The notes beneath the pieces were generated by a model, which saw nothing but the letters and a program-made list of their open reading frames with translations, was not told the DNA's origin and searched no databases. This document shows positions 15,645-56,172 of a stretch of DNA of 64,000 nucleotides, piece after piece. The DNA lies in assembly GCA_035706205.1 (NCBI GenBank), contig DASSVK010000054.1, positions 15,839-79,838 on the forward strand. The letters are read 5' to 3'. Numbering within the stretch: the first letter of the stretch is position 1; the number at the start of each line of letters is the position of its first letter. The position numbers were made by a program, and so were the translations under genes. This DNA comes from Nitrososphaeraceae archaeon (GTDB taxonomy: Archaea > Thermoproteota > Nitrososphaeria > Nitrososphaerales > Nitrososphaeraceae).

Positions 15645-18374
15645 TCAGCCTGATACACAACTACTGAAACCACATTCAATACACATATTACAACCTTCTG
15701 TAATGATAAGTTTGGAGTTACAAGTTGGACAAATCTCATCTTCATTTATTTCTTGTATAGTCTTGTGTATGAATTTTATCTTTTCGCTATTTTTTAGCGG
15801 TTCTTTTGTAGATATAGATATGTGATCTAAATCATCATTTACTATATTTTTTTTCTCTTCTAAGAGCTTAGAAACATATTGAATAACATATGGTTCTTTT
15901 ACATAAGATTTAATATATTCTTGGACATATTTACTTGGTTTTACAATAAAAGACTTTTCTAATGTATTAGTTCCTGTAATATGTAAAACTTGTTCATTTC
16001 TCGAACCATCTCTATATACAGTGACGCCTTTTAATCCTAATTCATGAGCTAGTAAATATGAAGATTTAACATCTTCAACGGTAACATCACCCGGCATATT
16101 AATAGTCTTTGCTATAGCATTACTTATCCATCTTTGCCATACAGATTGAGCCATTATATGATCCATCCAGTGAATATCAATAGCTGTTGTAAACATATTT
16201 TGCATCCATTCTGGTATATCATTTAATCCTCTAATTGATCCATAATTATTAGCTATTTTTGTTAAAATATCATCATTATATAACCCATTTTCCTTTAATA
16301 TATTTTCAAAAATTTTGTTAGTATAGAAAAATCTCCCTACTGTTACACGTTTTTCAAAAACTAATGCAAAGACTGGCTCTACACCATTTGAACAATCTGC
16401 TATCATTGATAGAGTTCCAGTAGGGGCAATAGTAGTAGTCCAAGAATTACGAATCCCAAACTTTTGAATTTTTTCAATTAATGAATCCCAATCGTAAGAA
16501 TGATATTCTTTAGGCATTTCATAATATCCTGCTACTGGAATTTTCCCTGCTACATAGTCAGACTTTTTGAATAATGGAAATGGGCCTCTAGACTTGGCAA
16601 TTGCTACACTTTCTTCCATACTATAATAAGTTAATGTTTCGGCAAGTTTATTCATAAATTCATAACCTTCTTTAGAAGCATATGGAATTCTCAACAGAAA
16701 TAAAAGATCAGCAATTCCCATAATTCCTAAACCTATTCTTCTTGTAAGCTTTGTATTATAGTCTATATCATCAACAGGATATTTATTAGCATCTATAATA
16801 TTATCTAAAAATCTTGATGAGATTCTTATAGTTTGTTCATACCTTGACCAATCAAATTCAAACATTCCATCTGCTTTTCTTTTTACAAAATTAGATAAAT
16901 TAATAGATCCAAGATTACAAGATTCATATGGATATAATGATTGTTCTCCACAAGGATTTGTAGCTTTAAGTGGTCCTTCTTTTGCTTTAATGCATGGATT
17001 GTATTTATTTATATTATCAAAGAAAATAACTCCTGGTTCTGCACTTTTCCATGCACTTAATGAGACAAGATCTATTAGTTGATGCGAATCTATCTGTTTA
17101 ATAGGGTCTTGTGTTCTAGGATTTTTAAGAGTATATTTATTACTATTTTTATTAATAAGTGACTTCCAAAAATCATCCCATAGGCCAATGCTCACATTAA
17201 AGTTTTCAAAAACCCCCGGTTTTGTCTTTGCAGTAATAAATTTTTCAATATCAGGGTGCCAAACCTCTAAAATTCCCATATTTGCTCCGCGTCTTTTGCC
17301 TCCTTGTTTTACAACATCGGTAATTGTATCTATAATTCGCATAAAAGACGCTGGACCAGATGCAACTCCAGATGTAGATGCAACAATATCACCTTCAGGT
17401 CTTAAGTCAGAATAATTAATTCCAACACCACCTCCTGATTTAAAGATCATAGCTGCATCTGAGGAAGTCTTCATTATTCGTTCCATATCGTCAGGCATAT
17501 CCAATACAAAACATGCCGAAAGTTGCCCTAATCTAGCTCCTGCGTTCATTAAAGTAGGAGTATTAGGGAGGAAATCTTTTGATACCATTAATGCATAATA
17601 TTCTTTTATTCGATCTTCATATTCTTTGAACTTTCCTTGAAAAATTAATTTTAAAAGTTCTTTAAATGAAATCTTCATTTGTCCTTTAGAAGCTAACTGA
17701 ACATATAACCGAATTAGTGATTCAAAATGATATCTATTTAAATAATAAGAGCCAATCTTTAATTTAAGATCAAAGTGGCTAATTTTATTATAATATGATG
17801 TAGCTTCTGATATATTCTGATTATACCCGCCCCCTAAATGGAATATAGTTTGATCATGTAAGACATCAGACAAAGCAACAAGAATAGCAACCCGTTCAAA
17901 CATCTGTTTAGGAGATTCCACAATTTCATTAGTATCATTTCGAAGTAGGTAACGTGAAGATAAAACACGTAAAGAATTTATATCAAAAGCTTTATCTACC
18001 TCATCAAGATTCTTTTTATTGAGGATTTTCATTTTATCTTCCCTGATCTTCCTTCTTTCGTGTCTATAAAGAATGTAAGCTTTTGCAGTATCTGATAATC
18101 CATCCTCAATAAGAATTGATTCAACTATATCCTGAACATCTTCTACACTTGGAATGACAGATTTATCAAAGGAAGTATTATTGAGAGTCATTTTTTTTAA
18201 GACTTTTTGAACTAGCTTTTTTGCTAATTGATAATTAGGTTTGCCAGTTGCTATCAAAGCTTTATAAATTGCCTGTTCTATCTTTGATTCATCAAAATTT
18301 ACTAATCTGCCATCTCGTTTTTTTATTTGAAATACAGATTTATTGTTAGTTTTATCTATTTCTGAGATTCCCAT
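15645..18374 (-). CDS. nrdJ: Class II (adenosylcobalamin-dependent) ribonucleotide reductase with N-terminal ATP-cone and C-terminal Zn ribbon
   Basis: IKKRDGRLVNFD ATP-cone, PNTPTL.NAG, SACFV, GGGVG, RRGANMG, TNPCGEQ (radical Cys), CNLGS, IAPTGT, KTINMP, VYRDGSR, CPTC...CIECG. No intein seen. Confidence 0.95.
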   Translation of the reverse strand: MGISEIDKTNNKSVFQIKKRDGRLVNFDESKIEQAIYKALIATGKPNYQLAKKLVQKVLKKMTLNNTSFDKSVIPSVEDVQDIVESILIEDGLSDTAKAYILYRHERRKIREDKMKILNKKNLDEVDKAFDINSLRVLSSRYLLRNDTNEIVESPKQMFERVAILVALSDVLHDQTIFHLGGGYNQNISEATSYYNKISHFDLKLKIGSYYLNRYHFESLIRLYVQLASKGQMKISFKELLKLIFQGKFKEYEDRIKEYYALMVSKDFLPNTPTLMNAGARLGQLSACFVLDMPDDMERIMKTSSDAAMIFKSGGGVGINYSDLRPEGDIVASTSGVASGPASFMRIIDTITDVVKQGGKRRGANMGILEVWHPDIEKFITAKTKPGVFENFNVSIGLWDDFWKSLINKNSNKYTLKNPRTQDPIKQIDSHQLIDLVSLSAWKSAEPGVIFFDNINKYNPCIKAKEGPLKATNPCGEQSLYPYESCNLGSINLSNFVKRKADGMFEFDWSRYEQTIRISSRFLDNIIDANKYPVDDIDYNTKLTRRIGLGIMGIADLLFLLRIPYASKEGYEFMNKLAETLTYYSMEESVAIAKSRGPFPLFKKSDYVAGKIPVAGYYEMPKEYHSYDWDSLIEKIQKFGIRNSWTTTIAPTGTLSMIADCSNGVEPVFALVFEKRVTVGRFFYTNKIFENILKENGLYNDDILTKIANNYGSIRGLNDIPEWMQNMFTTAIDIHWMDHIMAQSVWQRWISNAIAKTINMPGDVTVEDVKSSYLLAHELGLKGVTVYRDGSRNEQVLHITGTNTLEKSFIVKPSKYVQEYIKSYVKEPYVIQYVSKLLEEKKNIVNDDLDHISISTKEPLKNSEKIKFIHKTIQEINEDEICPTCNSKLIITEGCNMCIECGFSSCVSG

Positions 18375-18990
18375 ATATCTTCATCCTATTACAAATAATA
18401 TTCTAAGTAATTTAAGACTTGGATATTAATATTATGTAAAACAATAAGCTAATAATTTATACAATATAATTATTTTAGAATTGAAACAGAAAAAATGATA
18501 CAGAAAAAGGTCAGAAAAATTTATTGCATAACAATATACTAGATTTTTTGTTCTTATTATTATACTAAAAGTTATTTAAATTCTTTTTTAATTTATTTGC
18601 TAGTTTTATTAATATAATTATAAAATTGTACATTATATAATGTTTTAATAAATAAGCAATAAGGAGTAATACTTTTACAGGTAAAGGTAGCCACCTTAAG
18701 GAAATAAGTATTTATTTGTATATGTAAAAATATCAGATTTGCAAGTTAATAAAATATCGGATCGGCTCAAATAAAAATTATGATTAATTGACTATAAATA
18801 AAGATTAAGCTTTAATATACAACTTTAGCATTTGATATGTTTATAATTATATTTAGAAGTTTAATTAAATTTATCTATTTTTAAGTAATAAAGGTAACTA
18901 ATTAAATAATGTCTACACTAAAACGGGAATGTACTTCGTCTATTACTTATTAGCTTTAGTTACCTAGTTCTAAGAAAAATAAGAGAAAAA

Positions 18991-21126
18991 TTAGTTATAG
19001 ATTGAAGAAATTTTACTAGAGTCACATTTTTGACAAATTTTTAAATTAGGAATATCAAAACGTTCTCCACAAATATTACAAAATGAGAAATTAAGAGTTA
19101 TATGAAAGAATGGAAGATTAGCAGAAGATTTTATAACCTTTTTTATATCTTCAATATTAGTAATATCAGTGATATCGACATCAATGGAAACTCCCTTTAA
19201 AAGGTTCTCAATGGACGAATAATATTGTATTATAGAATCTATATCCAAAGAATTTGAGAGAATATTACTACCACTAATCTTCAATCCTTGAGAATAGGAT
19301 GTTATATTTTCGTCATTGTTTATTGTTATTGATTTACCATATTTCTCATTATCTAAGTCTTTAAATCTATAGGCACTTTCGTCTTTTAGCATTGTTATTC
19401 CAATTTCTGCATTTTCTTTATTTTCTTTTCTTTGCTCATTGATTATATCAACGGCAGTATGAATTATTTTTTTAATTACATCATTGCCATTATTTTCATG
19501 CCTGTATCCCAAAATATCATTAACTGATTCTTGAATACCGACTAAGTTAATCATAGCTTCAAGTTTTCCCATTTGTAAACTAGATGTTGTCTGGCTTACT
19601 ATAGGAGTTGTTCCTTTTTGAATTAAATCAGAAATTGAGAGAAATCGCTGAGAGATTATCGAAAGAATAGGTTTTAATAATAAAACAAGTCTTGCTCTAA
19701 AATAAGTTTCATCTTTATTTGATTGATATGCTATTCGTGGAAGATTGATTGATAAAGATTGTAATGTCACAACTGTACTTTTACTGGAGATTTCTTCAGA
19801 TTTACATAAACCATGTCGTCCACGAATCTTATCTTTTGAAAATGATATTATTCCTCCCGCTTTGGTAAGTTGTATAAGTTTATCTATAAAAGGATCAAGA
19901 CGAAAAAGATCATCATAAACAATAGAAATGGCAATAGTCGGAAGAGGTGTACTTGTTATATATTTTTGATATCCTTCAAATAATGAATTCAGAATGAACT
20001 CATTGTAATTAGGTAAATTAATTGATAATGTGATATTTGGAGAAAAGCATCCATATGATGAGATGGTAGAGGTTAAAAAGAAAAGGTTTGCTATGCTATC
20101 TTTGATAATTGTACTTCCTTCGATTTTTTTCTGGATAAAATCTAAAAATCCTTCAATAACAATTTCTCTAGATGCTTCTCGACTTAGTAGAGAAAAAACA
20201 ATTGCAACAACGGACTCTGGTGTTTGGAAATTATTTGAATGAAAAATTCTTGATACTGTTAGATACCGCCCCTTAATATCTTTAAAGATCTCTAAAATAG
20301 AATCCATATTGATAAATATGACATCTGGAACAATATTCCAAAATCCACTTTTCCCTATATTAATCTCGCCTGTTAAATGCATATCAACAATATCCTTTGG
20401 TAAAGAATTGTGCAAAAGGTATTCAGTGAATATAGATTGAGATGTTTTCACAACAAGATCGGGAATTTCCATATTGCTCGTACTAGTCTCATGAATAAGA
20501 GATATCATATCAGATGGAGGAAGTCCCAATCTAGCGAGTTTCGTTCTATATTCATCATATCCATGATCAATTAATATTGAATTAGTAGTTTCCCTTATTA
20601 GTGAAGAAGTAAGATAGGATGTTTGTAATTTGTAAATTTTATTTTCAACTTCTTCCGTAATTTTATGAGCGAGTTCTAAAGGCATATTAGCCTCTCTTAC
20701 TAACGATTGAATTATTTTATTAGAATCAAATTCTTCAATTGACGGTTTTGTAGTTCTAACGTATAATTTGCCACTTTCAATAATAGATCTTTCTTCTATT
20801 TGCCGAGCCAGGCTTAATACTAATTTCCCTAAATTAGTAATTGTATATCTTCTTTCTGCTTTATTAAGAGAAACCAAGGATTGACGAAGTAATTTTCTTA
20901 AATGATATGCAAATTTTCCTGATTCTTTTTTAGACTTAAATCCAGCAAGTGATTTTAATTCAGAATAAGTCAAAGGACCTTTAGAATAGAGAATTCTAAG
21001 AATATCTATACGATTTGGACTAGCCATAACAGAAAAAATCATCCTGACCCTTCGGGAAGCGGATTCCAATATACTTCCGCGTTTAGATCCAGGTTTACTA
21101 ATTATTTGTGATTGTACTCGCTCCAT
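18991..21126 (-). CDS. wHTH (ArsR-like) + ATP-cone + degenerate class III RNR (NrdD-like) domain protein; probable regulator/pseudoenzyme
   Basis: N-terminal SPNRIDILRIL...GPLTYSELK...GKFAYHLRKL..LV..RRYTITNLG wHTH; VRT...EEFDSNKIIQSLVREA ATP-cone; NrdD-like LPKDIVDMHLTGEI and SINLPRIA; C-terminal CNICG..CQKCDS; ends without an RxxGY glycyl-radical loop. Confidence 0.8.
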   Translation of the reverse strand: MERVQSQIISKPGSKRGSILESASRRVRMIFSVMASPNRIDILRILYSKGPLTYSELKSLAGFKSKKESGKFAYHLRKLLRQSLVSLNKAERRYTITNLGKLVLSLARQIEERSIIESGKLYVRTTKPSIEEFDSNKIIQSLVREANMPLELAHKITEEVENKIYKLQTSYLTSSLIRETTNSILIDHGYDEYRTKLARLGLPPSDMISLIHETSTSNMEIPDLVVKTSQSIFTEYLLHNSLPKDIVDMHLTGEINIGKSGFWNIVPDVIFINMDSILEIFKDIKGRYLTVSRIFHSNNFQTPESVVAIVFSLLSREASREIVIEGFLDFIQKKIEGSTIIKDSIANLFFLTSTISSYGCFSPNITLSINLPNYNEFILNSLFEGYQKYITSTPLPTIAISIVYDDLFRLDPFIDKLIQLTKAGGIISFSKDKIRGRHGLCKSEEISSKSTVVTLQSLSINLPRIAYQSNKDETYFRARLVLLLKPILSIISQRFLSISDLIQKGTTPIVSQTTSSLQMGKLEAMINLVGIQESVNDILGYRHENNGNDVIKKIIHTAVDIINEQRKENKENAEIGITMLKDESAYRFKDLDNEKYGKSITINNDENITSYSQGLKISGSNILSNSLDIDSIIQYYSSIENLLKGVSIDVDITDITNIEDIKKVIKSSANLPFFHITLNFSFCNICGERFDIPNLKICQKCDSSKISSIYN

Positions 21127-21217: not shown

Positions 21218-21844
21218 TTAAGCTTCTAATAGTACTTCAGATTTTTTATTAGAAATTTCTTTGTTCTTAAGTTTGGATTTATTTTTATTGGTTATACTAG
21301 TAGGTATATCTGGAAGCTTTACCATTGTATCTTCTTCCATAATATTTTGGACTTCATTAAGAATTTCTATCGCATCAGAATTAATAGGAACGGAAATAGT
21401 ATCGGAAGTCAAATTCACATTAGATTCTATTAATACATCTGACGTTAATGTTGACAATTCAGAAATAATATTAGTAGCAGTAGGTATCGTGGTTTTAACA
21501 TCATCTTTAACTTCTTTAATAGTAGCAATCATTGGATTAATAGTATCAAGAATTTCAGCAAATTCAGATATTGTGGAAAATCTTATAACTATTACTTCTA
21601 AACTCAATAATAGCTTTTGAGTTGTATTTTTTATTTTTCTAATATTTGCCAATTCGTTTGCTAATGCTTTTGCACGTAAATTATCACCATTTTTTATATT
21701 TATAATTACTTTATTATGTAAATCAGTATCCAAAGTAGTAAATCTATTATCAAGCATCCGCAGTTTTGCAAGTTGATTATTAACAACTCTGCTTGCATTA
21801 TCTAGTTTTGATTTTAACAGAGGATACTTTTCCATATGTTTCAT
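21218..21844 (-). CDS. ESCRT-III / CdvB paralogue (Snf7 family)
   Basis: Helical-hairpin pattern ...RAKALANELANIRKIK...LEVIVIRFSTI..F.EI..TINP...; C-terminal MIM2-like KLPDIP; no C-terminal wHTH. Confidence 0.85.
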   Translation of the reverse strand: MKHMEKYPLLKSKLDNASRVVNNQLAKLRMLDNRFTTLDTDLHNKVIINIKNGDNLRAKALANELANIRKIKNTTQKLLLSLEVIVIRFSTISEFAEILDTINPMIATIKEVKDDVKTTIPTATNIISELSTLTSDVLIESNVNLTSDTISVPINSDAIEILNEVQNIMEEDTMVKLPDIPTSITNKNKSKLKNKEISNKKSEVLLEA

Positions 21845-21950: not shown

Positions 21951-22337
21951 TTAAATTTTTTTCAAAAGCAATCCATGTTTTTTATCAAATCCATTTACTC
22001 TAACTTTTGATCCAATAGGAAGTTCGTTAGGTTGTTTAATTCCTGGCAGAAATCCAGATACTCGAATAGGAGCATTATCTAGAGTAAATATTACCCATGC
22101 ATAACTATCTACATCCTCAAATCCCTCAGGCGGAACGGTATGAATAGTAAAAGTATTTACAGTACCTGTACCATCATATTCTATTAAAGTAAATTTATTG
22201 CCTTGACATTTTTCACAATATAGAACGGTTTCGAGAATTATAGTCCCACAATTATTACATTTCCTAGCTAGGATTTTAAAATTCTGTGCAGAAGTGATAA
22301 ATTTTTCTCTCACTCCTCCGCTTACAGGATTGTTCAA
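21951..22337 (-). CDS. DUF35 family Zn-ribbon/OB-fold protein (thiolase partner)
   Basis: RKCNNCG....YCEKCQ rubredoxin-like site, GTGTVNTFTIH..PP.GF. The track start (22397) overlaps the thiolase; TTG 22337 or GTG 22313 is more plausible. Confidence 0.88.
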   Translation of the reverse strand: MNNPVSGGVREKFITSAQNFKILARKCNNCGTIILETVLYCEKCQGNKFTLIEYDGTGTVNTFTIHTVPPEGFEDVDSYAWVIFTLDNAPIRVSGFLPGIKQPNELPIGSKVRVNGFDKKHGLLLKKI

Positions 22338-22344
22338 TGTAATA

Positions 22345-23502
22345 TCAATCCACCTTTTTAAATATATGGACTGCGGCACTTGCTCCTGTTGCACCAAAAT
22401 TGTGAGTTAAAGCAATTTGTGCATCTTTAATTGTTCTTTCTCCAGATTTTCCAGTAAATTGTTCAAAAACTTCAACAACTTGTCCTACTCCTGTGGCTCC
22501 AATAGGATGACCTTTAGACTTCAATCCTCCAGATGGGTTAATTGGAATTTTCCCTTTTCTATAGGTTGCACCTTCACTAATTGCTTTAGCCGCTTTCCCT
22601 TTTTGAAAAAATCCTAGATCCTCTACATCAATTATCTCTGCAATTGTAAAACAATCATGAACTTCTGCAAAATCTATGTCTTCTGGAGTTATTCCAGCCA
22701 TTTTATAGGCTTGATTAGCAGCAGCAACTGTAGCTGGGATAGTAGTTATATCTTTTCTACCTTGAACAGCAGCAGGAGATCCACCTCGTCCTGATCCAAT
22801 AACTTGAATATATGGCTTTCCACTTTTCTTTGCAAAATCTTCACTACATATAATGACTGCAGAGGCACCATCTGAGAAAGGACAACAATCATATAATTTT
22901 AATGGAGAAGCAACTACAGGTGAATTAAGAACATCATCAACAGTAATTTTCTTGCGTACATGAGCTTTAGGATTTAGTAAGCCATTTTCATGATTTTTTA
23001 TTGCTACATTTGCTAGATCTTCTTCATCTGCTTTAAACTTAGTCATATAAGATCTTGCAATTGATGCAAATAAACCTGGAAAAGAAGCACCATTACCACC
23101 TTCGTAAAAAACATCGGAACAGTACGAGAAAAGAGTTGTACTTTGATTTGTTCCAGTATGAGTTATTTTTTCTACACCTAAAGCCAAAACACAATCATAA
23201 AAACCAGCACGAACATTTGCATATGCTTCCCTAAACATTATTGATCCTGAACCACATGCTGATTCAATAGTCAATCCAGGAACATGTGATATTCCTAAAT
23301 TACTCATAATAACTGGAGCCATATGTACTTGTTTATCTGCTACTCCAAAAACATTTGAAATATAACCGGCTTGAATATCATGAGGTGAAATTCCTGCAGA
23401 TTCAATAGCATCGACAGATGCATTAAGAGCTATTTCTATAACGCTTTCATTGAGCTTACCATATTTAGTACTACCAGCTCCTAAAATACAGACATTATTC
23501 AC
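22345..23502 (-). CDS. Acetyl-CoA C-acetyltransferase / acetoacetyl-CoA thiolase (archaeal SCP2-type)
   Basis: ESACGSG (catalytic Cys), NHENG..NP.AH, DCCPFSDGA, EVHDCF, NPSGGLKSKGHPIGATG. Confidence 0.93.
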   Translation of the reverse strand: MNNVCILGAGSTKYGKLNESVIEIALNASVDAIESAGISPHDIQAGYISNVFGVADKQVHMAPVIMSNLGISHVPGLTIESACGSGSIMFREAYANVRAGFYDCVLALGVEKITHTGTNQSTTLFSYCSDVFYEGGNGASFPGLFASIARSYMTKFKADEEDLANVAIKNHENGLLNPKAHVRKKITVDDVLNSPVVASPLKLYDCCPFSDGASAVIICSEDFAKKSGKPYIQVIGSGRGGSPAAVQGRKDITTIPATVAAANQAYKMAGITPEDIDFAEVHDCFTIAEIIDVEDLGFFQKGKAAKAISEGATYRKGKIPINPSGGLKSKGHPIGATGVGQVVEVFEQFTGKSGERTIKDAQIALTHNFGATGASAAVHIFKKVD

Positions 23503-23965: not shown

Positions 23966-24937
23966 TTATTTGCTTAATACTTATAATGATATTATTATCC
24001 TTATTAATATAAAATAAAATATATCAAAAAATATTATAAATTGATTGAATAAAAAAAGAATATAGATGATATAATTTCTTATTATTTAATACCTTAATGG
24101 TAATATAATGATAATAACAATAATGAAATAATTTGCTTGTTATAATAAGCAATATATTATATATGCAGAAAAAAGTAATACTTTAGTTTATATGCTATAT
24201 TTGAACTCACAATATAAGTCTTGTATAATTACTCTCAATCAGTTCTTATTTGAGAATAAAATAATTTAAAACCATTAAAAAAATAATCTAAATATCTAAT
24301 AATAATATAGAGCAAAGATATGTTATCCAATATTATCCGATAAATCGATAAAGATCATAAATAATTATTTTATTATTATTATCCTTATTATCTCTAACCT
24401 TGAGGTATTATTAGATTTAGTAAAAATAAATTAATTATCTATAAGAGGTAATAGTCAAATCAATAATATAATACAATATCTATTAATTTATGATAATTTT
24501 ATACGAGATCACTTATTGAACGAATCTATATTAATTTGTATTTTTATTTGTATTTTTTATATTTATATTTGGAATAATAGTATAGTCAAATAGCCACTTA
24601 ATTTTTTTAAAATATAACACATAGATCCTGTACATTTTAAACCTTTTTATAAGATAAATTCTTTATCTTTCATCAGCATATGTTATCTTAGTACAATAAA
24701 ATAATAAACTTTAATAAATTCATAAATATATAAAAATTTTAATGCTTTATAAAATTTTATTATAACTTCCAATTATCAAAGAACCAGTTAACATAGTTGA
24801 ATTGCATTCATAAAAAATACAAGATTTGCTAAATACTATTAATTTAAAATAAATTGATATGGTGAAATTGTTAATGATATATTAATAAAATTTAATGATT
24901 TATTTTTATTAATAATTAGTAAAAAAAAAGAAGAATT

Positions 24938-25084
24938 TTATGTAGTAAATCCTCCAGTAGCAACTGTTATAACTATATAAACTAAAATAAAGATACCTAC
25001 AAAAATCCTTGTACCTTTAAGTGTATTTGCTAATGAAGACTCTTCCTTCTTTAAAGTATTGGTGTCTTTAGTCAATATAGCCAA
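24938..25084 (-). CDS. 48-aa small membrane protein
   Basis: TTG start: MAILTKDTNTLKKEESSLANTLKGTRIFVGIFILVYIVITVATGGFTT*; visibly higher GC than its flanks; one C-terminal TM helix. Confidence 0.45.
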   Translation of the reverse strand: MAILTKDTNTLKKEESSLANTLKGTRIFVGIFILVYIVITVATGGFTT

Positions 25085-25869
25085 AGTGTATGATAATTAT
25101 AAACCCATAGTAATAAAGGTTTAAGATGAATATATGGAGTAAACAATTTTTTATAGTAATTATTTTTTATTATAATATATTTTTCTTTAACGATACACAA
25201 AGTCAATAATCATCAATTATTTATAGACATATAATCTTATTAAATAATACAAATAAAGAATTTTAGAAATTAAAAAACTATAAAAATAAAATTAGAAATT
25301 CGAAAAAAATGAAAAAGAATAGAAGTTGTATCTGCAAGAATCTTTGATATTGGTTTAATCTAAAGATCAAATTTTTGTATAATTAACAAATTTTTGTTCT
25401 TATTTATAACGTTATTAAATATCATTTGCTGCTAAAAAACCGAGATGAATGTTAATAAGGTATTATCTATGAAGGACCTTAAATAAAAGAAATTGATGTT
25501 TGAATTTAGAAATATATGGATTTCTTGTAAATTTTTATCTCTTGGAAACTAATTACGTCAAATATTTAAGAATGTTATGTTCTTGAAACAGCTGAAGAAT
25601 TATTTCTATTTTATTAGAAAAAGAGTCTTTTGAATTAATATTTTTTTATCCTCAAAAATATAATTTATATAAAATATTTTACCTTTTTGTGGTAGCCAAT
25701 GATAGAAAATCGGTAGCTACAACTAACATATTATAATACTATTAAGGTTTTTAATATTAAATTCTATTTTAATTCTTTTAAAATCAAAGTATTAGGTATA
25801 TAAAATATTTTTAAAATAATTTATCTAAATCAAAAAAATTGGAATAGTATTTTCTAACTTGTATAAAAA

Positions 25870-26151
25870 TCAATGACCTTTATTGGACAATTCCCATACA
25901 AGATCATTAAACATGGTATTCATATGGTCAATTTTAAGCTCCATTCCTTCAAGTAAAGTAATGGCTTCTGCGGTATTATTTGATTTGACTAATTGTATAA
26001 CTTGGTCGACATTATTCGCTAATTGGGAATGAGTAAATCTCATATGACCCATCATTTGTTCTGCAGCACCTATTTGAGAATATACTTGTTGTACAAGACC
26101 AAAAAGAATTCCAATCACAACAATGAAGATTATGGATATAACTATCTTCAT
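25870..26151 (-). CDS. Small secreted or membrane-anchored helical protein, Met/His-rich
   Basis: Signal-like MKIVISIIFIVVIGILFGLVQQVYS. Start moved to ATG 26151 (track gives 26166) because TTTAAAAG at 26173-26180 sits at -22..-29. Confidence 0.65.
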   Translation of the reverse strand: MKIVISIIFIVVIGILFGLVQQVYSQIGAAEQMMGHMRFTHSQLANNVDQVIQLVKSNNTAEAITLLEGMELKIDHMNTMFNDLVWELSNKGH

Positions 26152-26553: not shown

Positions 26554-26647
26554 CGCCGGGAGAGGGATTTGAACCCTCGCGACCTTTCGGTCACAAGCTT
26601 ACTTGATAATTCCAGGCTTGCGCCCTTCCAGGCTAGGCGACCCCGGC
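26554..26647 (-). tRNA. tRNA-Ser(GGA) with a 10-nt intron at 37/38 (intron 26600-26609)
   Basis: Acceptor GCCGGGG/TCCCGGC, G73, anticodon stem CAAGC/GCTTG, loop CT-GGA-A|TTATCAAGTA|A, long variable arm GACC-GAAA-GGTC, T-arm GAGGG-TTCAAAT-CCCTC; CCA not encoded. Confidence 0.93.
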
Positions 26648-56072: not shown

Positions 56073-56172
56073 GGCCTTCGGAGGGATTTGAACCCTCCTC
56101 AAGCGGTTTCCACCATTTTACAAAATAAAAGACCACAGCCGCCTATACTAACCAGGCTATACTACGAAGGCC
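56073..56172 (-). tRNA. tRNA-His(GUG) with genomically encoded G-1 and a 25-nt intron at 37/38 (intron 56108-56132)
   Basis: G-1 + GCCTTCG/CGAAGGC + C73, anticodon stem GGCGG/CCGCT, loop CT-GTG-G|TCTTTTATTTTGTAAAATGGTGGAA|A, T-arm GAGGG-TTCAAAT-CCCTC. Confidence 0.93.

Follow-up and report, generated by a model that had tools for sequence, protein, structure and literature searches.

RESULTS

A four-domain protein is encoded directly upstream of nrdJ

The locus described here lies in a 64,000-nucleotide stretch of DNA from a Nitrososphaeraceae archaeon, an ammonia oxidiser of soil (contig DASSVK010000054.1), which as a whole is called the window in this report; the genome it comes from is 2.26 Mb long and 97% complete. 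A single open reading frame (ORF) of the window encodes a 711-aa protein in which a winged helix-turn-helix (wHTH) is followed by an ATP-cone, a body resembling NrdD, the class III ribonucleotide reductase (RNR), and a Zn ribbon of the NrdD type (Table 1). A first-pass annotation of the window had proposed this arrangement, and our Pfam scan found every element where it had been placed. In the wHTH, DUF7347 matched at aa 30-104 (40.5 bits, cut-off 27.6) and HTH_20 passed marginally at aa 34-85 (28.0 bits against a cut-off of 27), while an NCBIfam metalloregulator model reached 23.4 bits, under its cut-off of 55. The ATP-cone was recognized at aa 122-193 (38 bits, cut-off 25.8) and the NRDD family PF13597 at aa 226-705 (71.9 bits), the latter covering positions 14-531 of the 562 in the profile and leaving positions 532-562, which correspond to the glycyl loop, unmatched. 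The same four domains are present in all of the best 120 of 3,776 homologs found in a word-indexed search, and these 120 carry the label 'anaerobic ribonucleoside-triphosphate reductase' or 'ArsR family regulator'.

Table 1. Position of the candidate gene, its domains and the adjoining elements in the window
Feature	Position	Strand	Description
Candidate regulator derived from NrdD, whole gene	18991..21126	minus	711 aa: wHTH, variant ATP-cone, predicted dead NrdD barrel, Zn ribbon
wHTH, ArsR/HTH_20 type, Pfam DUF7347 (aa 29-113)	20788..21042	minus	Recognition helix around GKFAYHLRKL
Variant ATP-cone (aa 119-203), YVRTTKPSIEEFDSNKI...YRTKLARLG	20518..20772	minus	Pfam ATP-cone
Class III RNR (NrdD) alpha/beta-barrel, predicted catalytically dead (aa 204-675)	19102..20517	minus	PF13597, AlphaFold2, Foldseek
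NrdD-type C-terminal Zn ribbon (C683/C686/C698/C701)	18994..19101	minus	No glycyl-radical loop
nrdJ, class II (B12-dependent) RNR with canonical ATP-cone	15645..18374	minus	TIGR02504, 757.7 bits
Own promoter element of the candidate gene	TTTGTA (21183-21178)-N10-TACAAA (21167-21162)	minus	Followed by GTAG and TATA-like TTTTAAT (21157-21151)
Spacer between the candidate gene and nrdJ	18375..18990		616 bp, AT-rich, non-coding (no ORF); presumed nrdJ promoter

Structure prediction agreed with the proposed fold. In an AlphaFold2 model built from an alignment of 40 orthologs, the barrel was predicted with a pLDDT (predicted local distance difference test) of 85-94 and the cone with moderate confidence, and the prediction of the wHTH was poor. 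When the PDB was searched with Foldseek, the top 36 matches were all NrdD structures (E 1e-16 to 4e-8), headed by those of T. maritima, S. thermophilus, P. copri and phage T4 (E 1e-16 to 1e-10, about 12% identity). A PDB search with the single sequence gave only a weak MarR match, and NrdD was reached with a profile.

The reductase body has lost the residues of radical chemistry

The protein ends with KISSIYN, 10 residues past the last Zn Cys, and in all 80 species-level orthologs the C-terminus falls 7-15 residues past the second CxxC. The four Zn ligands C683, C686, C698 and C701, which correspond to the Zn cysteines of true NrdDs, do not vary among 81 orthologs; no other Cys column is conserved in at least 90% of these orthologs. 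The Cys of GRHGLCK, noted by the first-pass annotation near the expected finger loop, is indeed present (C441), although only 18 of the 81 orthologs have a Cys there.

The catalytic site was compared in an alignment of the orthologs from ammonia-oxidising archaea (AOA), distant relatives and 7 genuine NrdDs from other members of the phylum. The column equivalent to C79 of T4 NrdD is an invariant Cys in the 7 true NrdDs and V269 in the window protein, and it is occupied by T or V in the wHTH-fused family. The finger-loop Cys-Cys of the true NrdDs corresponds to R437-H438, and in a HMMER alignment to T4 NrdD the Cys at position 290 faces I434. Both the single-Cys and the Cys-Cys columns vary across the wHTH-fused family, including its more distant relatives. 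As the annotation had claimed for the window protein, the glycyl-radical loop has been lost: the Gly-Tyr column (SR[VI][TV]GY in true NrdDs) is absent in all AOA orthologs. The NxN substrate flap, a segment between cone and core that covers the bound substrate in P. copri NrdD (PMC11226230), was found in none of the 46 wHTH-fused members aligned, whereas 6 full-length true NrdDs carry ENAN or ENSN. Consistently, the equivalog model of NrdD, TIGR02487, gave 62.4 bits, with a cut-off of 326.35. What the protein has in common with true NrdDs is a set of framework residues (H250, G253, P267, N461, P463, D592 and Y611).

The activase is missing as well. The absence of nrdG, first reported for the window, extends to the whole genome, where the best NrdG2 score was 51 bits against a cut-off of 131. 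We inspected the five best NrdG-like radical S-adenosylmethionine ORFs for a hidden activase and rejected them; the top three are QueE-like, AmmeMemoRadiSam (335 bits) and MoaA (315 bits). A frameshift or assembly artefact that conceals a real glycyl loop could be excluded because stops interrupt all three frames of the spacer beyond the gene, where no remnant of such a loop is present, and the 80 orthologs all end alike. The window protein is the sole NrdD-like locus of the genome. Altogether, the reading of the protein as a dead enzyme, with a class III RNR fold incapable of radical chemistry, is strongly supported by these comparisons.

Selection acts most strongly on the DNA-binding head and the cone

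The gene was found in 293 of 301 genomes of the archaeal class (275 of the 278 high-quality ones), almost always in single copy. The 80 species-level loci that we retrieved bear the names Nitrososphaeraceae, Nitrososphaera, Nitrosopolaris and Nitrosomirales. Ratios of nonsynonymous to synonymous substitution rates (dN/dS, Nei-Gojobori) calculated against four close orthologs were 0.000-0.016 for the wHTH, 0.000-0.043 for the cone and 0.12-0.21 for the barrel, and identity to distant orthologs was 96%, 81% and 38%, respectively. This pattern places the selective weight on the DNA-binding head and the cone, and indicates that the barrel is kept as a folded functional module. A decaying pseudogene is not compatible with a near-universal single-copy gene with low dN/dS in all its regions. 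Nearly all columns of the wHTH are invariant across 40 orthologs.

The ATP-cone of S. coelicolor NrdR contacts the phosphates through K50 and R51 of the beta-hairpin and recognizes the adenine through E56 and F58, and its K62 is needed for nucleotide binding (PMC9110341); in the cone of P. copri NrdD the phosphate role is taken by Lys7 and Arg8 (PMC11226230). The columns R124, T125, E131, F133 and R194 of the window protein are invariant in 81 orthologs. E131 and F133 occupy the adenine-reading positions, and the equivalent of K62 is conserved as K/R137. Nucleotide binding by this cone, a variant in the phosphate-binding pair (see Discussion), is plausible but cannot be assumed to be ATP/dATP-like.

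The neighbouring genes change with the lineage

The annotation had placed the gene directly upstream of, and co-oriented with, an intact class II RNR, and this holds: nrdJ is full-length (Pfam scores of 503 bits for the barrel and 71.7 bits for the ATP-cone), is the sole PF02867 locus and codes for the only RNR of the genome. When linkage was defined as a co-oriented nrdJ within 1.2 kb downstream, nrdJ directly follows the gene in 57 of the 69 loci of the window's family that had enough flanking sequence. A second, marine-type family has nrdJ in this place in 10 of 10 loci. We also examined 22 genomes from other classes of the phylum. Four of them carry the dead paralogue immediately upstream of a nrdD that is genuine and Gly-bearing, one (L123) carries it upstream of nrdJ, and in 8 it adjoins genes matching pyrB/pyrI (a BLAST assignment to a query that was itself unscanned). 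That the neighbour changes with the host's route of nucleotide synthesis argues for a functional link. NrdR itself (TIGR00244) had no match in the window genome, and only one of 151 genomes of the class gave a score above the cut-off, in keeping with its reported rarity in archaea (PMC9110341).

On the other side of the gene, a 208-aa paralogue of the ESCRT-III protein CdvB is encoded at 21218-21844 on the minus strand (NF041005 75 bits, cut-off 350; Snf7 weak). In the window's family, 76 of 77 loci have this cdvB-like gene immediately upstream and in the same orientation, whereas none of the 10 marine-type loci has it there. Further upstream, the region 21951-23502 (minus strand) encodes a DUF35/ChsH2 OB-fold (oligonucleotide/oligosaccharide-binding fold) Zn-ribbon protein, identified by scan, next to a thiolase-like ORF named by eye. 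Genes for 3-hydroxy-3-methylglutaryl-CoA synthase/reductase, also named by eye, are neighbours of the distant relatives L117, L119-L122, L127, L128, L098 and L123. If these assignments are right, the mevalonate/DUF35 neighbourhood is a very old conserved gene order.

Relatives of the protein form a series of three tiers

An exhaustive search of representatives returned 893 cluster representatives, which fall into three tiers. Members of tier 1 are like the window protein. Those of tier 2 (740-800 aa) continue past the Zn ribbon into a tail that usually has Ala, Ser or Thr in place of the radical Gly (SRVSAKH as compared with SRVTGY), and some of these tails end right after SRV. Members of tier 3 (about 570-640 aa) have lost the Zn ribbon too. 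The recognition-helix signature of the HTH_20/ArsR type is kept in tier-2 and tier-3 relatives. One subgroup of tier 2 (L117, L119-L122, L127, L128; P0203) has retained the Gly (TRVYGKY) and lost both catalytic cysteines, and its tail is a putative fossil of the glycyl domain.

The annotation was correct in regarding the protein as archaeal, but the family is wider than the thaumarchaea it had in mind, since it includes other Thermoproteota and an Asgard-named protein; relatives with names are found in Candidatus Atabeyarchaeum (Asgard) and Candidatus Terraquivivens. With the strict NrdD model, 99 of 201 genomes of a phylum sample pass the cut-off, and among the genomes listed at E 1e-30 in this sample none belongs to the window's order. 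Tier-2 paralogues share genomes with an intact NrdD. The genuine, Gly-bearing NrdDs encoded beside dead paralogues (L097-L100) have the same odd cone, with VRRTDG or VRTSK and not V-x-K-R-D-G. A VRT[ST]-type cone common to the family and these neighbouring enzymes indicates which NrdD subclade gave rise to the family, and such a cone presumably operates in active enzymes as well.

A conserved dyad abuts the TATA-like box of the gene

The TATA-like TTTTAAT lies 24 nt ahead of the ATG at 21126. A 19-nt core, TTTACAAAGTAGTTTTAAT, was matched with at most five mismatches in 73 of 80 upstream regions, and 67 of the matches begin 42-44 nt ahead of the ATG chosen as the start. In a scan of the 2.26-Mb genome with a position weight matrix (PWM), the 26-nt own-promoter element was unique, scoring 32.9 bits where the second-best site reached 14.9. 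An autorepressor site would be expected to show such dyad symmetry and such a place next to the TATA-like box, and the predicted dyad suggests autoregulation.

The spacer that separates the gene from nrdJ matched no Rfam family. Its counterpart measures 657 bp in the closest relative, L002, and 87-300 bp in most relatives; the window and L002 spacers are 45% identical and have two short islands in common, one of which is TCAAATGCTAAAGTTGTATAT at about 18815-18850. The nrdJ promoters differ by clade, and TTTAC...TAGTAA dyads are found in some clades only. In the marine-type family (L103-L112) the own-promoter element differs, with GATC words and a phasing of about 11 bp, despite an essentially identical wHTH. 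Relative to the rest of the loci, GATC is enriched there 4.4-fold upstream of the gene and 2.8-fold in the spacer before nrdJ, statistics that are inflated by related genomes; no such enrichment was seen in the window's family. GATC at both marine-type promoters is the sole sequence-level hint of co-regulation. The tier-2 promoters yielded only generic AATTTTTTAAAC boxes when searched for an operator. A tRNA-like sequence, GGGGCTGCCCGGATTTGAACCGGG..., is found just upstream of the tier-2 gene in L102, L114 and L125.

DISCUSSION

In this work, we have analysed an archaeal protein in which a DNA-binding domain and an ATP-cone are joined to the body of an anaerobic-type reductase. Most likely, the protein regulates the supply of DNA precursors and has so far gone undescribed; our full-text literature searches found no publication on this protein or on DUF7347. 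More precisely, we propose that it is a non-catalytic, nucleotide-sensing transcription factor for nrdJ, derived from an inactivated class III RNR. We give this proposal, which is based on domain architecture, selection, synteny and a single dyad, a probability of about 55%. The first-pass annotation had described a factor that senses dNTPs (deoxynucleoside triphosphates) and acts on nrd genes. The conserved dyad of the own promoter and the selection on the wHTH agree with that idea, but no operator common to the gene and nrdJ was found.

How could such a protein work? We propose that, like class III RNRs, it would form dimers via the NrdD core, and that the two ArsR-type winged helices of the dimer would bind a dyad operator. 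Nucleotide would be bound at the variant cone and possibly also at what used to be the specificity site, in the dimer interface. The bound nucleotide could alter how the protein oligomerises or how far apart its two DNA-binding heads stand, by analogy with the action of ATP/dATP on NrdR and with the tetramers that dATP makes the P. copri NrdD dimers form. Among the predicted sites, the most concrete is the protein's own promoter, where occupancy would block TBP/TFB and result in autorepression.

To our knowledge, NrdR is the only RNR-specific regulator described so far, and the control of RNR expression and dNTP supply in archaea is essentially unknown. Since the lineage has no NrdR, a functional analogue is plausible, and that the protein controls nrdJ in this capacity is what we infer from synteny. 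Like the candidate, NrdR combines a DNA-binding domain with an ATP-cone and is encoded beside RNR genes (PMC9110341). It often regulates its own gene, as the own-promoter dyad suggests for the candidate. However, NrdR measures about 150 aa, binds DNA through a Zn ribbon at its N-terminus and lacks an RNR body, whereas the candidate has an ArsR-type wHTH, a C-terminal Zn ribbon of the NrdD type and an attached dead barrel of 470 residues. Their sequence relationship is confined to the cone, which in the candidate is devoid of a K50/R51-type pair, and no paired palindromes resembling NrdR boxes were found upstream of nrdJ. The earlier proposal of an archaeal NrdR analogue is therefore retained in part: the lack of NrdR in the class and the maintained linkage to nrdJ favour it, while the cone without Lys-Arg and the missing common operator do not.

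The other relationships of the protein are those of its modules. It has the barrel, N-terminal cone and C-terminal Zn ribbon of the NrdDs of phage T4 (1H79), T. maritima (4U3E/4COL), P. copri (8P23) and S. thermophilus (9DCA), from which it differs by the added wHTH and by the loss of the glycyl loop, the radical Cys pair, the bottom-face Cys, the NxN flap and the NrdG partner. Its N-terminal 85 residues match HTH_20 and DUF7347 and include an ArsR-like helix (...AYHLRKL...), as in the ArsR/SmtB regulators; the latter are stand-alone dimers of about 100-120 aa, whereas here the wHTH is the head of a 600-residue sensor. A precedent for an enzyme-annotated regulator in which an enzyme-like sensor is fused to a winged helix is NrtR, the Nudix-related regulator of NAD metabolism. 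This family was identified by comparative genomics beside the pathway that it controls (PMC2330246). It has an unrelated sensor, a Nudix domain, the opposite domain order and a bacterial distribution. Its operators and regulons were reconstructed, which could not be achieved for the candidate. By analogy, the candidate may join NrtR among the enzyme-derived one-component regulators, and NrdR as a regulator with an ATP-cone.

Several observations weigh against the proposed control of nrdJ. In the cone, the canonical Lys-Arg pair is replaced by T125 and T/S126, flanked by the invariant R124 and by K/R127. The model of the wHTH is of low confidence. nrdJ is missing downstream of the gene in 12 of the 69 loci, and most tier-2 relatives are not beside an RNR gene. 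Moreover, the mevalonate genes adjoin the family in distant lineages as well as in the window, and some of the synteny is therefore likely to be inherited gene order. At the level of operators, the whole-genome PWM scan found no copy of the own-promoter element upstream of nrdJ or elsewhere, and a k-mer enrichment in the nrdJ promoters of 31 clade representatives, with other promoters from the same loci as background, returned only core-promoter words resembling TATA boxes and B recognition elements. The nrdJ promoters turn over quickly, even between orthologs that are 91% identical. Finally, an invariant wHTH together with family-specific promoter elements is awkward if the wHTH reads that element.

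Some of these points would be better accommodated by a DNA-binding transcription factor whose regulon and ligand are not specific to RNR, such as a global or cell-cycle regulator, or one in which the remodelled cone and barrel sense energy charge or another metabolite; nrdJ would stand beside it by inheritance. The missing common operator, the cone without its canonical K-R and the mevalonate genes that accompany the family across distant lineages would all fit, as would the extreme invariance of the wHTH, which suits a protein with many constrained targets, and the cdvB-like cell-division gene, which is an even tighter neighbour than nrdJ. We nevertheless consider this unlikely. The neighbours vary by lineage and yet remain genes of nucleotide synthesis (nrdJ in the two AOA families and in L123, nrdD in 4 genomes, pyrBI in 8), while the adjacency of cdvB is limited to one family. 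The sensor module itself originates from an RNR, and the E and F that read adenine are retained in its cone, as is the K62 equivalent. The conflict between an invariant wHTH and differing promoters could also be solved if the protein were not a transcription factor at all. The dead RNR would then work through protein contacts, for example as a regulator or scaffold of NrdJ or of the replication or division machinery, and its wHTH would be a module for protein interaction or for non-specific binding of nucleic acids. A conserved protein or structural nucleic-acid partner would explain the invariance better than a drifting operator does, no regulon motif was found, and an ESCRT-III cell-division gene is among the neighbours. 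Still, the HTH_20/ArsR recognition-helix signature is kept in all tiers, and the gene has in its own promoter a conserved dyad, unique in the genome, right next to the TATA-like box. A heterodimer with NrdJ is not expected, since the dimer interface of class III RNRs differs from that of class II. We regard a role through protein contacts as quite unlikely.

It is also very improbable that the protein is still an enzyme, be it an RNR with another radical source or a barrel with a non-radical activity on nucleotides. Purifying selection on the body (dN/dS 0.12-0.21), the framework residues H250, G253, P267, N461, P463, D592 and Y611, and the public annotation as an anaerobic RNR would be in line with such an activity. 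Nevertheless, the protein has no Gly loop, no conserved Cys beyond the Zn ligands, no NxN flap and no activase. Ammonia oxidisers are aerobes, and the hosts own a complete NrdJ; in other genomes the tier-2 paralogues coexist with an intact NrdD.

If the proposal of a nucleotide-sensing transcription factor is extended from the window to the whole family, the latter could represent an ancient TACK and Asgard lineage that made a whole class III RNR the sensor of a transcription factor. Such an archaeal counterpart of NrdR would read adenine and deoxynucleotide pools via the cone and the specificity site, and would set the nucleotide-synthesis genes of its host, which would be nrdJ in aerobic ammonia oxidisers and nrdD and pyrBI in anaerobes. 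We consider this extension possible, and offer it tentatively.

Almost all ammonia-oxidising archaea that were examined have the candidate, and cultured species should be among them. If the proposed function is true, the candidate would be the first example of a whole RNR catalytic subunit that has been converted into a regulatory sensor, and it would add to the transcription factors derived from pseudoenzymes. There is also a practical consequence. Thousands of database entries are labelled 'anaerobic ribonucleoside-triphosphate reductase', a label that could mislead metabolic reconstructions into assigning an anaerobic dNTP pathway to aerobic nitrifiers.

Other features of the window

Two tRNA matches were found on the minus strand, at 26554-26647 (94 nt) and 56073-56171 (99 nt). 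As the model has 71 positions, their length suggests that both are intron-containing archaeal tRNAs. The G+C content of the window reaches its minimum, 19%, at 24001-26000, and is about 28% elsewhere.

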